Positions 36,396 through 60,651 of a DNA stretch of 64,000 nt are shown here, one piece after another. The DNA lies in assembly GCA_964016885.1 (NCBI GenBank), contig CAXHJY010000349.1, positions 26,423 to 90,422 on the forward strand, written 5' to 3'. The stretch is from Eledone cirrhosa. Lineage: Eukaryota. Below the pieces are notes generated by a model that did no database searches, was not told where the DNA came from, and saw only the letters and a list, made by a program, of their open reading frames with translations. Each line of letters opens with the position of its first letter. Position 1 is the first letter of the stretch. The position numbers and the translations under genes were made by a program.

Positions 36396-37296
36396 AAAAA
36401 CAAATAACGAAACGAAATTAAATTTCGTTTCGCCTCTAACTCACTTTTGTATGACTGACGCTTAAACAATTAAATTAAAGTGTACATCTACATATGTATA
36501 CGGAAGTATTAGTATGCATATAAATACACACATGTATACATATGTACATGTACTGAGTTTTTCACTAGACACTTTACAGTGAGTGTCAGCTAGTCTGTAT
36601 GTAACCACACAGACGGACCGGGTTTTAGAGTCATACGAGTTTTCAAGGAAACACATTTCCTCTATTCTCCAGAGAGCCAGACAGGAATATTGGACTAGTT
36701 TCGATGTTATTACATCTCATAAGCAATATTTACCCATCTTCCGGCTTCTCTGGAGAATTGTAAAAGCGCATATCGTTATATGCTTTTTCTATGAAAATTA
36801 GTAGTGGGTAGACTAATTTGCATAGAACGTGAGTCATTGTACGCACCGGTTCAGCGGAAACGATAAAAACAAATAACGAAACGAAATTAAATTTCGTTTC
36901 GCTTCTAACTCACTTTTGTATGACTGACGCTTAAACAATTAAGTTAAAGTGTACATCTACATATGTATACGGAAGTATTAGTATGCATATAAATACACAC
37001 ATGTATACATATGTACATGTACTGAGTTTTTCACTAGACACTTTACAGTGAGTGTCAGCTAGTCTGTATGTAACCACACAGACGGACCGGGTTTTAGAGT
37101 CATACGAGTTTTCAAGGAAACACATTTCCTCTATTCTCCAGAGAGCCAGACAGGAATATTGGACTAGTTTCGATGTTATTACATTTCATCAGCAATATTT
37201 ACCCATCTTCCGGCTTCTCTGGAGAATTGTAAAAGCACATATCGTTATATGCTTTTTCTATGAAAATTAGTAGTGGGTAGACTAATTTGCATAGAA
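36396..37296 (-). mobile_element. Retrozyme-like tandem repeat, 469-bp monomer x1.9, with extended HHRs at 36665-36757 (core mutated to CTTATGA) and 37134-37226
   Basis: Period 469; aatattg-CTGATGA-aatgt AATA acatc-GAAA-CTAG-TC-caatatt with distal stem ttctccagagaagccgg/ctggctctctggagaa. Confidence 0.85.
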
Positions 37297-38620
37297 CGGA
37301 GCAATTTATTAATGCATGGACAGTTATATGACCTCCTTTTCAGCCGAGAGACATACCAATACATATTCAAACATTGATACATATTCAAACATTGTGGGTC
37401 AACATTCATTACAGAATTTAGAGTGGCAGTACACACTTCGAGATTACATTTATATTAATAGGTACAATCAAAAATCAAAGATATAGGTTAAAGGAGGACT
37501 GCGGATTGACCTTTGGCCTGCCTGGGGACGATTATCTTTCGACATCCAATGTAGCAAGCGATGACCCAGATCTTACCAGAGATCATTGGGTCCTGAAGCA
37601 ATCCTGCAATCACCGCGCCTGGTCATATGAGCAGACTACAACCACAGAGATCATTAATTTAGAATCCTCGCTCATCATCTATAATTTCCATTTGTAGCAC
37701 CTTAAGATGGGTTAATCCACCATAATAATATGATCACCTTCAGTATAACTTAGTTAAACTACTCTATAGTTAATACACTTTATGCTTTAAAAGTCTCTCT
37801 TGGAAGGTGCACTTCACCATAGAATTTAGGGTCTATATTGGGACACATTTTAATGGCTAGATATAGAAACCCCAGAGTTACCTCCCCGCATGCATTAACT
37901 CCCCTTAGCCACACACACACTTCCGGTATTCAATGGCGTTTCTCGAAACGTAACAACCTCCTGTATCGAACTAAAGAACACCAGACTATGATCTCTAACT
38001 GGATTGTCGTGGATTATGTGAAAGGCATATAATCGAAATATACACTCCCTTGACCATGGAAATGCCGAAGTACATGAATTACTTGACATCCCTGCGCTGT
38101 GCATCTCCAATACTTATAACACTTTTAATGCTTGCACTATCTTTAATGCTTATAATATTTCTCCACACACAGACTATATCAATCATATAAAGATTTTGCC
38201 ACTAGATCTACCAACCTAACACTCTTATTTACCTACCTAAGTGCCTCTACCACACATATCTCTCTGCCTCACTATATAAACAAGACGCACATGCGTGCCA
38301 CACATATAACATTTGCACTATATAACCACTTATCTTCATGTTGTACTTTAACCTATATCTTTGATTTTTGATTGTACCTATTAATATAAATGTAATCTCG
38401 AAGTGTGTACTGCCACTCTAAATTCTGTAATGAATGTTGACCCACAATGTTTGAATATGTATCAATGTTTGAATATGTATTGGTATGTCTCTCGGCTGAA
38501 AAGGAGGTCATATAACTGTCCATGCATTAATAAATTGCTCCGAAGAATCCAAATCTCGGTTTGGAGGAAACAGCTGTAAGCACAATAATGTTTTGAACAG
38601 TTCTTTGATTCTTATATTTC
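37297..38620 (+). mobile_element. Family B PLE fragment with inverted 5' piece and HHR-like motif at 38536-38582
   Basis: 37297-37490 is the reverse complement of 38349-38542; degenerate VYIG..RYRN remnant near 37830; tgct-CCGAAGA-stem-GAAA-CAGCTG-TA-agca. Confidence 0.75.
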
Positions 38621-40382
38621 ATATATATATATATATACATATATATATATATATATATACATATATATATATACATATATATATATAATATATATATATT
38701 TATAGATATATATATACATATATATATATACATATATATTTTTCATATATATATATATATATATATATATATATATATATATATATATATATAAATATAT
38801 TTATATATATATATATAAATATATTTATATATACTCTTTTACTCTTTTACCTGTTTCAGCCATCCGGCTGAGGCCATGCTAGGGCACCGCCCTTATATAT
38901 ATATATATATATATTTATATATATATATATATATATATAAATATATTTATATATATATAGTTTCCGTAAACTCTTGGTAGATTTATCTACATATATATGT
39001 ATATATATATATGTATATATATATATGTATATATATATATATATATATATATATATATATATATATATATATATATATATATATATATATGTGTATATAT
39101 ATATATATATATATATATATATATATATATATAAATATATATATATATATATATATATATATATATATATATATATATATATGTATATATATATATATAT
39201 ATATATATATATATACATATATATATATATACATATATATATAAATATATTTATATATATATATATATGTATATTTATAAATATATTTATATATATATAT
39301 ATATATAAATATATTTATATATATATATATAAATATATTTATATATATATATATAAATATATTTATATATATATATATATATATATATATATATATATAT
39401 ATATATATATATATATATATATATATATATATATATATATATATATATATATTTATATATGAAAAATATGGGGAGAAGAATACTGCATGGTTGCACATGG
39501 ATTACATGTTATAAAATGAGTCCCTCATCAGTGATTTGCCAACGATCATTGGTATTTCATCGCATTAAAAATCATATACGAAAAATCATATGCGAAAATA
39601 ACTAAAATAAGTTATTAGGACAATTGAAACGCGTAAAGCGAGTGAGACAAGTAAACAACACTGGGGAAAACTAACCGAAGATAGAAAGAACACAAGCAAC
39701 ATGGTTATTCTGTCAGTATAAGCTGGGTGAATATATGAGCGAGTAAGAAATAGACCTTCCGCTAGTGAATCCGATGTAAGAAAGAAGGAAAATCGTTTTC
39801 GTAGCGAACGGGGGGAAGTGAGAAAGGGAGAAACAGAGAGTGAGTGAGTGGAAGTGCGAGGAAGAGGTCAGTAGAGAGAAAGTTTTAACTGATATGAGAG
39901 GGACGAAAGAAAGTAAGAGAAACAGAGAGACCGAGGGAGCAGTTAGAGAGAAAGAGAGAAACACAGAATCGCAGTTTAGGTAAATATATATACTTATATA
40001 TATATATAAATATATATATTTATATATATATATATATGTATATATATATATATATATATTTATATATATATATGTATATATATATATATGTATATATATA
40101 TTTATATATATATATGTATATGTATATATATATGTATGTATGTATATATATATATATATATATATATATTATATATAAATATAAATATATGTAAATATAT
40201 ATATAAATATATATATAAATATAAATATATATATAAATATAAATATATATATAAATATATATATATATATAAATATATATATATATAAATATATATAAAT
40301 ATATATATATAAATATATATAAATATATATATATATATATATATATATATATATATATATATATATATATATATATATATAT

Positions 40383-59700: not shown

Positions 59701-59801
59701 TGTATATATATATATATATATATATATATATATATATATATATATATATATATATATATATATATATATATATATATGTATATATATATGTATATATATA
59801 T

Positions 59802-60651
59802 AAAAACAAATAACGAAACGAAATTAAATTTCGTTTCGTTTGTAACTCACTTTTGTATGACTGACGCTTAAACAATTAAGTTAAAAATGTACATCTACAT
59901 ATGCATACTGAAATACTAGTATGCATATGAATACACACACGTATACATATGTAGATGTACCAAGTCTTTCACTGGTTACTTTACTGTGAGTATCCAGCTA
60001 TTCTGTATGTAAACACACAGACAAACCGGTTTTTAGAGTCATACTGGTTTTTGAGGAAACACCTTTCCTCTATTCTTCAGAAAGCCAGACAAGGAATATT
60101 GGACTAGTTTCGATGTTGTTACATCTCATCAGCAATATTTACCTATCTTCCGGCCTTTCTAGAGAATCGTAAAAGCACATATCGTTATATGCTTTTCTAT
60201 GAAAATTAGTAGTGGGTAGACTAATTTGCATAGAGCGTGAGTACGTACCGGTTCAACGGAGACGATAAAAACAAATAACGAAACGAATAATTTGCAAATT
60301 AGTCTGCCCACTACTAATTTTCATAGAAAAAGCATATAACGATATGTGCTTTTACGATTCTCCAGAAAGGCCGGTAGATAGGTAAATATTGCTGATGAGT
60401 TGTAACAACAACGAAACTAGTTCAATATTCCTTGTCTGGCTTTCTGGAGAATAGAGGAAAGGTGTTTCCTCAAAAACCAGTATGACTCTAAAAACCGGTT
60501 TGTCTGTGTGTTTACATACAGAATAGCTGGATACTCACAGTAAAGTAACCAGTGAAAGACTTGGTACATCTACATATGTATACGTGTGTGTATTCATATG
60601 CATACTAGTATTTCAGTATGCATATGTAGATGTACATTTTTAACTTAATTG
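59802..60651. mobile_element. 469-bp-family retrozyme-like insertion with inversion, HHRs at 60073-60166 (-) and 60358-60451 (+)
   Basis: Homologous to 36396-37296; aatattg-CTGATGA-gttgt AACA acaac-GAAA-CTAG-TT-caatatt. Confidence 0.88.

Follow-up and report, generated by a model that had tools for sequence, protein, structure and literature searches.

Non-LTR retrozymes of animals, described in coral, mussel and axolotl (HHR_Amex1 and HHR_Amex2; Cervera and de la Pena 2020, PMC7229834), consist of tandem, non-coding units of a few hundred bp with a G+C content under 50%, each carrying one type I hammerhead; they are predicted to form self-paired circles, co-occur with Penelope-like elements (PLEs), and have been shown to be expressed and to cleave. 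Vertebrate retrozymes were interpreted as PLE derivatives by Li, Clavereau and Pollet (2026, bioRxiv 10.64898/2026.07.22.740005), who rely on co-occurrence and homology to pseudo-LTRs (pLTRs), favour local amplification and call the mechanism of mobilisation unresolved; in vitro cleavage was seen for just 1 of the 9 predicted Xenopus elements. Both reports state as open how retrozymes enter a genome. EN+ PLEs of the Neptune/Nematis and Hydra clades (Craig et al. 2021, PMC8557442; Frangieh et al. 2024, PMC11167929) form partial tandems with an inverted, 5'-truncated arm and a tail at one end only, prefer (TA)n, and are reverse-transcribed from two internal start sites with both strands primed. 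In vitro, PLE protein, a predicted dimer, cuts and extends both strands and starts copying at two internal sites, between which the tail lies (PMC11167929). The formation of the PLE tail and of the inverted arm is only partly known.

We analysed 64,000 nt of the Eledone cirrhosa assembly (henceforth the window), in which units of 310, 422 and 466/469 bp contain 13 type I hammerhead cores whose helix III region is palindromic. These repeats are likely to be further non-LTR retrozymes, i.e., a known kind of element: they share with the animal retrozymes the sequence-level traits listed above, and their larger units (466-511 bp) exceed the range of 150-450 bp given in PMC7229834 (all units fall within the 51-972 bp of Li et al. 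2026). The more informative feature is the insertion footprint. Insertions with two inverted arms, priming at fixed sites and a (TA)n target, as found here, are not described for retrozymes in the available parts of PMC7229834, whose supplement may list molluscan relatives or insertion structures; nor did we find such a footprint for retrozymes elsewhere in the literature searched. PLE origin and mobilisation were proposed by Li et al. too, from a different kind of evidence: here the integration footprint makes the link to PLEs directly, and no pLTR homology was found in the 8 PLE regions compared. EN+ PLEs resemble the repeats in each of the insertion features named above, whereas the repeats encode no protein, have a full tertiary-type hammerhead in every unit and carry many identical units per arm.

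Hammerhead arrays in the window and in the genome

Repeat periods of 469 and 310 were found by TRF, and the 422 repeat by self-BLAST; unit lengths are 310/311, 422 and 460-511 bp, with a G+C content of 35-38%. No 100-aa frame lies inside the arrays except for read-through of adjoining (TA)n, and an Rfam search of the whole window returned miRNA models on palindromes, all below gathering score. The 469-bp family is represented by a single minus-strand arm of 1.93 units (36394..37298), whose 3' end lies on (TA)n at unit position 299, the outer (long) site, and whose 5' end adjoins another repeat. Its tail, between the two priming sites (positions about 230-299), occupies 36394..36463 (minus strand) and contains the acgaaa..aatttc hairpin. 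One of its two minus-strand hammerheads (36665..36753, cut after 36693) has a mutated core, CUUAUGA, and is likely inactive, and the other (37134..37222, cut after 37162) has an intact core with an A·C mismatch at the helix II base. The 422-bp family also forms a single minus-strand arm (40387..40999, 1.45 units), whose 3' end meets (TA)n at position 214-217, the inner (short) site; its hammerhead (40573..40661, minus strand, cut after 40601) has U·U at the helix II base and no Rfam match at E<=0.5. The block gaaaacgataaa at 40741..40752 (minus strand), common to 422 and 469 units, has the outer priming site (position 275) inside it and a homologue in the 469 unit at 36857-36867.

Two insertions have head-to-head arms. 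In the 310-bp family, the left arm (50787..51723, minus strand) holds 3.02 identical units and three hammerheads cut after 51572, 51262 and 50952, and its 3' end adjoins (TA)n at the long site (165); a 15-nt filler (51724..51738) separates it from the right arm (51739..53337, plus strand), which holds 5.16 units identical to those of the left arm, has five hammerheads cut after 51958, 52268, 52578, 52888 and 53198, and ends at the short site (139) on (TA)n. In the 466/469 group, a left arm of 1.05 units (59800..60287, minus strand, cut after 60102) ends at the long site (299), and a right arm of 0.77 unit (60293..60655, plus strand, cut after 60422), of the gttgt/acaac subfamily, ends at the short site (230). 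The motifs listed in the original prediction were all recovered in place, including gttgt/acaac, gatgt/acatc, agct/agct, ttct/agaa and three blocks shared by 422 and 469 units, two of which coincide with the outer priming site and the tail.

The repeats are dispersed and multi-copy. Genome-wide, the pattern of core plus AAYA had 50,440 exact matches versus 2 for the reversed control and thus is not due to chance; exact cores numbered 13,610 (310), 9,305 (466/469) and 25,724 (422 group), with 0 in controls, for a sum of about 48,600, which by our own multiplication corresponds to roughly 20 Mb or 0.6-0.7% of the assembly. Arrays on nine different contigs (L041-L049) have 4-17 units per arm that are identical within and between loci, and 11 of the 23 long arms examined have at most three recurrent variants; locus-specific variants repeat in every unit. 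Old arrays of more than 20 units are heterogeneous (84-95% identity) and have higher-order repeats with variant patterns of period 2, 3, 4 and 7, indicating that growth after insertion also occurs. The 16 loci with other stem II sequences (L120-L135) contained no tandem hammerhead units, and stem I was mostly absent from them. We saw no significant signal of RNA editing in the arms sampled, with 7 A>G vs 3 T>C among variants found in every unit of an arm and 20 vs 20 among one-unit variants. A single circular 340-nt contig (depth 10-15) appeared in three runs labelled as other organisms; we set it aside, because carry-over from a repeat-rich sample would look alike.

Ribozyme architecture and structural selection

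Stem III is palindromic, as originally predicted, but it is not a 6-bp stem: one molecule has one A-U pair closed off by a tetraloop that is palindromic, and the 6 bp of helix III require two copies to pair with each other. Helix II starts with U·U in 310 and 422 units, and this position is unpaired in 11 of 19 aligned variants. The AAYA loop is not conserved throughout (an AACG variant occurs in 5 of the 15 first-listed 310 clusters). The U and A bordering it are invariant across variants, so this pair lends no support from covariation; it may be part of a 6-nt loop, as in the HH9 alignment. Rfam Hammerhead_HH9 (RF02275), presumably a vertebrate intronic motif, resembles the repeats in its type I topology, 6-bp proximal stem I, internal loop and 6-nt A-rich loop II, while helix III is shorter here; its scores (38.6-38.9 for the 469 group, 19.2 for 310, no match for 422) lie below the gathering score of 52. 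The architecture common to the three families is ordinary in itself: it is the standard type I hammerhead known from animal retrozymes, with HH9 as best Rfam match. A palindromic tetraloop III, U·U at the helix II base and loop1/loop2 contacts are described for that group (PMC7229834); Amex1 has the single-pair helix III with palindromic tetraloop and Amex2 the U·U, both of which are combined in 310 and 422 units. We infer loop I/loop II tertiary contacts in these hammerheads too, which the conserved ribozyme flanks would form. The contrast originally drawn with the hammerheads of nearby PLEs stands as far as sequence is concerned, although several of these are not minimal (8-bp stem I, long stem II).

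Structural selection on the stems is supported by compensatory changes in the alignment and by subfamily changes that keep pairs. Specifically, in the 19 aligned variants (related sequences, chosen by hand) paired cells amounted to 92%, compared with 38-49% in slid controls, and 13 of 17 pairs had changed on both sides. Changes that distinguish subfamilies tended to keep pairs (9:3, 5:2, 16:14, 14:13) in comparison with private decay (9:23, 3:20, 21:60; p 0.007-0.018, two of the six subfamily comparisons, with 470 as reference and only 2 private paired changes, being uninformative). The exchange between gttgt/acaac and gatgt/acatc is real, but it separates subfamilies inside the 469 group and not the families. 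Predicted circular MFE gave z-scores of -4.0, -13.0 and -11.2 against 25 shuffles, as for a stable self-paired circle. Together, the data support the view of these retrozymes as non-autonomous, ribozyme-bearing elements under structural selection. A single lineage of all three families, as originally proposed, holds in part: homology between 422 and 469 units (68% over 225 nt, E 1e-15, blastn) supports their common descent, whereas 310 units had no blastn homology outside the ribozyme. A 6-bp distal stem end common to 310 and 469 units was seen by eye only.

Insertion footprint and resident Penelope-like elements

In all three families, most copies lie in (TA)n as head-to-head arms. In every family the 3' ends on (TA)n occupy two fixed positions, which lie 26-74 nt from each other and 139-299 nt downstream of the cut site; 106 of 113 arm 3' ends fall inside two end ranges per family (defined from the same data as tallied, and with one pair in L082 duplicated). 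The 45 head-to-head pairs comprise 41 with one short and one long arm, 1 with two long arms and 3 that are unclassifiable (p=2e-11), i.e., 41 of 42 classifiable insertions have one arm per site; no tail-to-tail pairs were present among the arms tallied. The only long+long pair (L057) has a mirrored flank of 536 bp, which makes it a later inverted duplication, and just one other pair has any mirrored flank, a short match (93 bp, 80%). Both arms of an insertion carry one haplotype: of the polymorphic positions that they share, 0/28, 9/431 and 17/123 differ between them, compared with 44%, 22% and 35% after permutation. Arm junctions mostly have a 1-8 nt overlap. The 45 pairs showed no direct flank repeats outside microsatellites (target-site duplications are unreadable within (TA)n), and arrays end on (TA)n without terminal direct repeats.

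An inverted 5' arm, a tail at one end and a microsatellite target are features of PLE-mobilised elements, and the window itself contains PLEs with the same footprint. A 5'-truncated Neptune-type PLE with one in-frame stop (46663..49005) has head-to-head arms with a tailed left end (85) and a tail-less right end (26), both on (TA)n; a second Neptune-type fragment (54382..56420, GIY-YIG part) is likewise head-to-head, with a tail on the left end only and (TA)n on both sides. The genome holds many open PLE frames of 713 and 1217 codons. All 12 pairs tallied for the Neptune-type PLE whose 1217-codon frames are intact were short+long on (TA)n (loci chosen for opposite-strand matches, not for ends), and a Hydra-type PLE likewise has two ends. 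It is this common footprint, absent from the original prediction, that ties the retrozymes to PLEs.

Proposed mechanism of insertion and alternative explanations

We consider it likely that the repeats are non-coding non-LTR retrozymes residing in (TA)n and copied by the RT and GIY-YIG endonuclease of a resident PLE. The back-to-back arms at two fixed sites suggest that a small RNA, probably circular, serves PLE-type enzymes as the one template for both sides of a DNA break. Arrays would be transcribed, and hammerheads would cut the multimers to monomers, probably as double hammerheads paired via the palindrome; the monomer would become a circle, either sealed covalently or kept closed by stem I. 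A PLE dimer would nick both strands of (TA)n, each strand would be primed at one of the two internal sites on the same RNA, the RT would go round this RNA several times, and the two cDNAs would join head to head. The conserved 422/469 blocks may be a signal for the enzyme. A search for the partner element gave no candidate: the monomers have no sequence homology to the 8 PLE regions compared, except one low-complexity match, and none of the PLE ends among 1,830 clustered TA-adjacent ends matches a retrozyme end.

A circle is not strictly needed, given that similar arms would also arise from a linear multimer that is homogeneous. The same elements and enzyme could thus have used an uncut multimer, or cut monomers joined by RT template jumps, with no covalent circle, which we regard as unlikely. 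Uncut RNA was the main substrate of the anole PLE in vitro (PMC11167929); the arm at 59800..60287 is a two-haplotype chimera that switches just 3' of its cut site, within the first 110 of 466 nt, and in 6 of 12 stretches of old arrays (several from one array) the best haplotype break was no more than about 65 nt away from the cut. However, the formal phase test for arrays made from cut monomers was negative, with 1 of 12 stretches at the cut-site interval versus 1.8 expected (11 further arms had too few variants). Moreover, jumps among mixed templates would be expected to combine haplotypes, but young arms are uniform over as many as 16 units, and the two arms of an insertion match even though the genome contains several haplotypes.

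That the monomers are instead pseudo-LTRs of an unsampled autonomous PLE seems very unlikely, even in a genome with many PLE and TA-targeted families (49 recurring end types) and with 24 of 57 Xenopus retrozyme families matching transposons, nearly all at PLE termini (bioRxiv 10.64898/2026.07.22.740005). A Hydra-like ORF does lie about 335 bp upstream on the same strand at L050 and L067, but the two ORFs belong to different families. Any PLE match within about 2.5 kb was found at 11 of 59 retrozyme loci, with none nearby at the other 48; the 20 inspected 5' junctions all differ from each other, with no recurring PLE, so the monomers are not constantly attached to RT ORFs. Most arrays are bounded at both ends by (TA)n or an inverted arm. 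This explanation concerns origin and is compatible with present non-autonomous spread.

Alternatively, each locus might have received a single unit (a detached pLTR) and gained its array later by unequal crossing-over, as in Li et al. 2026, who argue for local amplification (bioRxiv 10.64898/2026.07.22.740005). The very long old arrays, with their diverged units and periodic variant patterns, fit such growth; we find this account highly improbable, because the identical multi-unit arrays across nine contigs cannot have had the time to grow unit by unit, amplification affects both arms, and unit numbers are fractional, starting at fixed sites. Palindromes are a known long-read artefact. That the head-to-head arms are fold-backs of assembly or library is nonetheless hardly credible, mirrored flanks as at L057 being set against unrelated flanks in 43 of 45 pairs, arms that differ in length and, in a fixed way, in 3' end, the documentation of the pattern for PLEs (PMC8557442), and contigs from a public run (possibly the source sample) with TA loose ends at both 310 sites (51787, 51818).

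Returning to copying by a resident PLE, we find TAT|C, with TTTC or TTTCC coming within the next few bases, at the outer site of 422 and 469 units and at the inner site of 310 units; the same TAT|C..TTTC pattern occurs at the inner site of both resident Neptune-type elements and at neither Hydra-type site. Tentatively, this motif raises the possibility, doubtful as yet, that retrozymes mimic the reverse-transcription start signal of Neptune-type PLEs, in which case one small RNA circle would be bound by a Neptune RT dimer that rolls round it from both sites simultaneously. If true, this would identify the partner, delimit a minimal template and account together for the PLE tail and the inverted arm. 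A single genome here combines about 48,600 cores and young, identical copies with start sites that are mapped and candidate enzymes that are intact, so how retrozymes enter genomes can be tested directly with a 310-nt template.

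Insertion footprint of the retrozyme families

For these hammerhead-bearing retrozymes, named by unit length in bp (310, 422 and 469), we mapped the arms (i.e., tandem stretches of units) at 59 fetched loci, chosen as the closest matches to window copies, and in the window itself, a (TA)n-rich animal sequence from a 3.0 Gb assembly. Counting from the hammerhead cut site, each family had two 3' ends on (TA)n, a short (inner) and a long (outer) one: about 139 and 165-170 in the 310 family, 217 and 275 in 422, and 225-230 and 299 in 469. In all, 106 of 113 arm 3' ends fell inside the two windows of their family. 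Among 45 head-to-head pairs (i.e., two inverted arms of one insertion), 41 combined a short with a long end, one had two long ends and three were unclassifiable (p = 2e-11, with one pair being a local duplicate); the mapped loci and the window contained no tail-to-tail pairs. The sole pair with two long ends is flanked by 536 bp of mirrored sequence and arose later, by inverted duplication. Flanks were unrelated in 43 of the 45 pairs, and 25 showed a junction overlap of 1-8 nt. Loci fetched later had mostly been chosen for their position on a chromosome; among these, visual inspection gave 12 further pairs that fit and 3 that were unclear. Of the first 15 clusters in the 310 listing, 11 were head-to-head.

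We found the same haplotype in both arms of an insertion (mismatches 0/28, 9/431 and 17/123, vs. 44%, 22% and 35% when permuted), and young arms repeated locus-specific variants in every unit. Between 422 and 469 the sites are homologous. The outer one falls within the gaaa(a)cgataaa block, and the tail (i.e., the stretch between the sites) contains the acgaaa..aatttc hairpin. The literature covered by our search, including PMC11722881, yielded no report of two-armed, fixed-site retrozyme insertions.

Old arrays of great length had heterogeneous units and had probably expanded once inserted. A phase test applied to old arrays came out negative (1 of 12). The 422-type array at 96,988,000-97,032,000 of assembly sequence G000:C1, where four sampled stretches over about 44 kb had 92-93% identity to the reference unit, is a case of satellite-like growth. 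Higher-order variant periods in long arrays (4 at locus L087, 2 and 7 at L066, 3 at L073, 2 at L080) reflect either multimer templates or post-insertion duplication. In the window, inverted-repeat-bounded elements (37299-38545 and 41000-42590) adjoin the 5' ends of single-arm 469 and 422 copies, and a GC-rich 149-bp repeat is present in tandem plus inverted form (26047-26461). Judging by eye, a GAGTRCT-like word is common to many TA-targeted families other than the retrozymes, some 45-65 nt ahead of the end; retrozyme tails have a 4-5 nt remnant of it at most.

Penelope-like elements as candidate machinery

Both window and genome contain many open frames of two types of Penelope-like element (PLE), assigned by motifs in PMC8557442: a Neptune/Nematis type (1217-codon frame, CX4CxxC linker) and a Hydra type (713-codon frame, CxCX5C linker). 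A retrozyme-like footprint, with ends at 19-26 and 69-85, was found in 12 of 12 head-to-head pairs of the Neptune-type element, one of these being the window's pair (46663-49005). The Hydra-type element (window 30621-32522; loci L191-L199) gave 85,510 first-look genome candidates, and many of its 713-codon frames are open. Its two ends are separated by about 76 nt; a hammerhead scan within this family found none, though Hydra elements are said to carry one. Four window stretches (24302-24617, 34422-34516, 43681-43974 and 63172-63271) have PLE-type hammerheads in which stem I spans 5-8 bp, stem II is long and loop III has 6 nt; two of the stretches are short inverted pairs. A fragment at 2442-2819 (-) resembles, by its motifs, a Pif1/Helitron helicase end.

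The monomers are not tied to RT reading frames: any PLE match lay nearby at 11 of 59 retrozyme loci, 20 inspected 5' junctions had no recurring PLE, and comparison with 8 PLE regions revealed no homology. In each family, one of the two sites is similar to the inner site of the Neptune type (TAT|C..TTTC), a likeness that neither Hydra site shows; this motif is short, with TAT expected from the target, and may serve as a lead on the partner PLE.

PLEs have been described with an inverted arm, a one-sided tail and a (TA)n bias (Craig et al., PMC8557442). In vitro, a PLE protein cut and extended both strands from two internal starts bounding the tail, and was predicted to form a dimer (Frangieh et al., PMC11167929). 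A 2026 preprint argued for a PLE origin of retrozymes from co-occurrence and pseudo-LTR homology, leaving the mechanism open (bioRxiv 10.64898/2026.07.22.740005). We consider the most likely mechanism, and a probable one, to be two-strand copying by a PLE dimer of one hammerhead-cut, circle-closed monomer RNA into (TA)n. The footprint itself is observed, and the steps leading to it are inferred: retrozyme arrays would be transcribed, hammerheads, probably acting as dimers, would cut the transcripts to monomers, and a monomer would close into a circle. A PLE dimer would then perform two-strand target-primed reverse transcription at (TA)n, with synthesis on each DNA strand beginning at one fixed site and circling a shared RNA, and the two cDNAs would join head to head. 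One case argues against a single circle in the strict sense: at 59800-60287 (-), the left arm is chimeric (L200-type haplotype upstream of the cut, L072-type downstream) with a pure L072-type right arm, as would be expected if the template was switched close to the cut or if recombination followed later. The excess of A>G changes, of the kind that editing would leave, fell short of significance (7 vs. 3).

Hammerhead architecture, structural selection and class

Scanning both strands identified 13 cores of the type I hammerhead within the three families of the window (8 in the 310-bp array, 4 in the 466/469 group, 1 in the 422-bp array); the one at 36693 is mutated. The periods, the stems and the common 422/469 blocks were as the original prediction described. 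The predicted AAYA loop holds as a pattern (50,440 exact genome matches with the core, vs. 2 for a reversed control) but not as an invariant, given that the loop II variant AACG has spread (5 among the first 15 listed 310 clusters). Family-specific core patterns had 13,610 (310), 9,305 (466/469) and 25,724 (422) matches. Stem III is indeed palindromic, but within a single molecule it comprises one A-U pair and a palindromic tetraloop, reaching 6 bp solely between two copies. Helix II has a U·U at its base in 310 and 422. The best Rfam match was Hammerhead_HH9 (RF02275), under the gathering score, and the 422 motif had no Rfam match.

Related sequences were also seen. Hammerheads at three loci (L182:137-225, L148:2865-2953, L149:3028-3116) keep this architecture but differ in their stems and have CAUG or CAUA as loop III, representing additional, rarer families. 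Three repeats (L104:2322-3022, L150:1686-2074, L159:3919-4313) are about 70% similar to the 310 unit, with a period of about 315; a pattern search found no standard core in them, and they may form a family that is older or has a different wiring. A small TA-flanked inverted family (L034:5132-5251, L085:2293-2418, L114, L159) has a hammerhead-like core in which loop II is very short and loop III is not palindromic. Sequencing runs X4, X5 and X6, from samples labelled as three other organisms, each gave one circular 340-nt contig, at a depth of 10-15, that matches the majority allele of 310.

The predicted structural selection was supported. In an alignment of 19 variants which we picked to represent subfamilies, 92% of cells were paired (38-49% in slid controls) and 13 of 17 pairs had changed on both sides, counts that are not probabilities because the sequences are mutually related. 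The central pair of the palindrome was UA 11, GC 5 and AU 3 times, without exception, which fits selection for between-copy pairing. Across whole monomers, predicted pairs were kept more by between-subfamily substitutions (9:3, 5:2, 16:14, 14:13) than by private changes, i.e., those in single copies (9:23, 3:20, 21:60; p 0.007-0.018); two subfamily comparisons had too few private changes to inform. For all three families, the predicted circular folds were 4 to 13 SD more stable than those of dinucleotide-shuffled sequences.

Overall, the observation was right and its interpretation right in part. A single lineage holds for 422 and 469 (68% over 225 nt, E = 1e-15), between which further subfamilies of 460-511 bp fall, but was not supported for 310: blastn found no match to either beyond the ribozyme, and 310 and 469 have in common only a 6-bp distal stem end, spotted by eye. 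The conserved architecture is present but canonical. Axolotl retrozymes have been described with the palindromic tetraloop and the U·U pair, both likewise seen here, as well as with loop1/loop2 contacts and cleavage that depends on dimers (Cervera and de la Pena, PMC7229834). Given this canonical architecture and these previously described features, we regard the Eledone cirrhosa elements as new members within an already known class.
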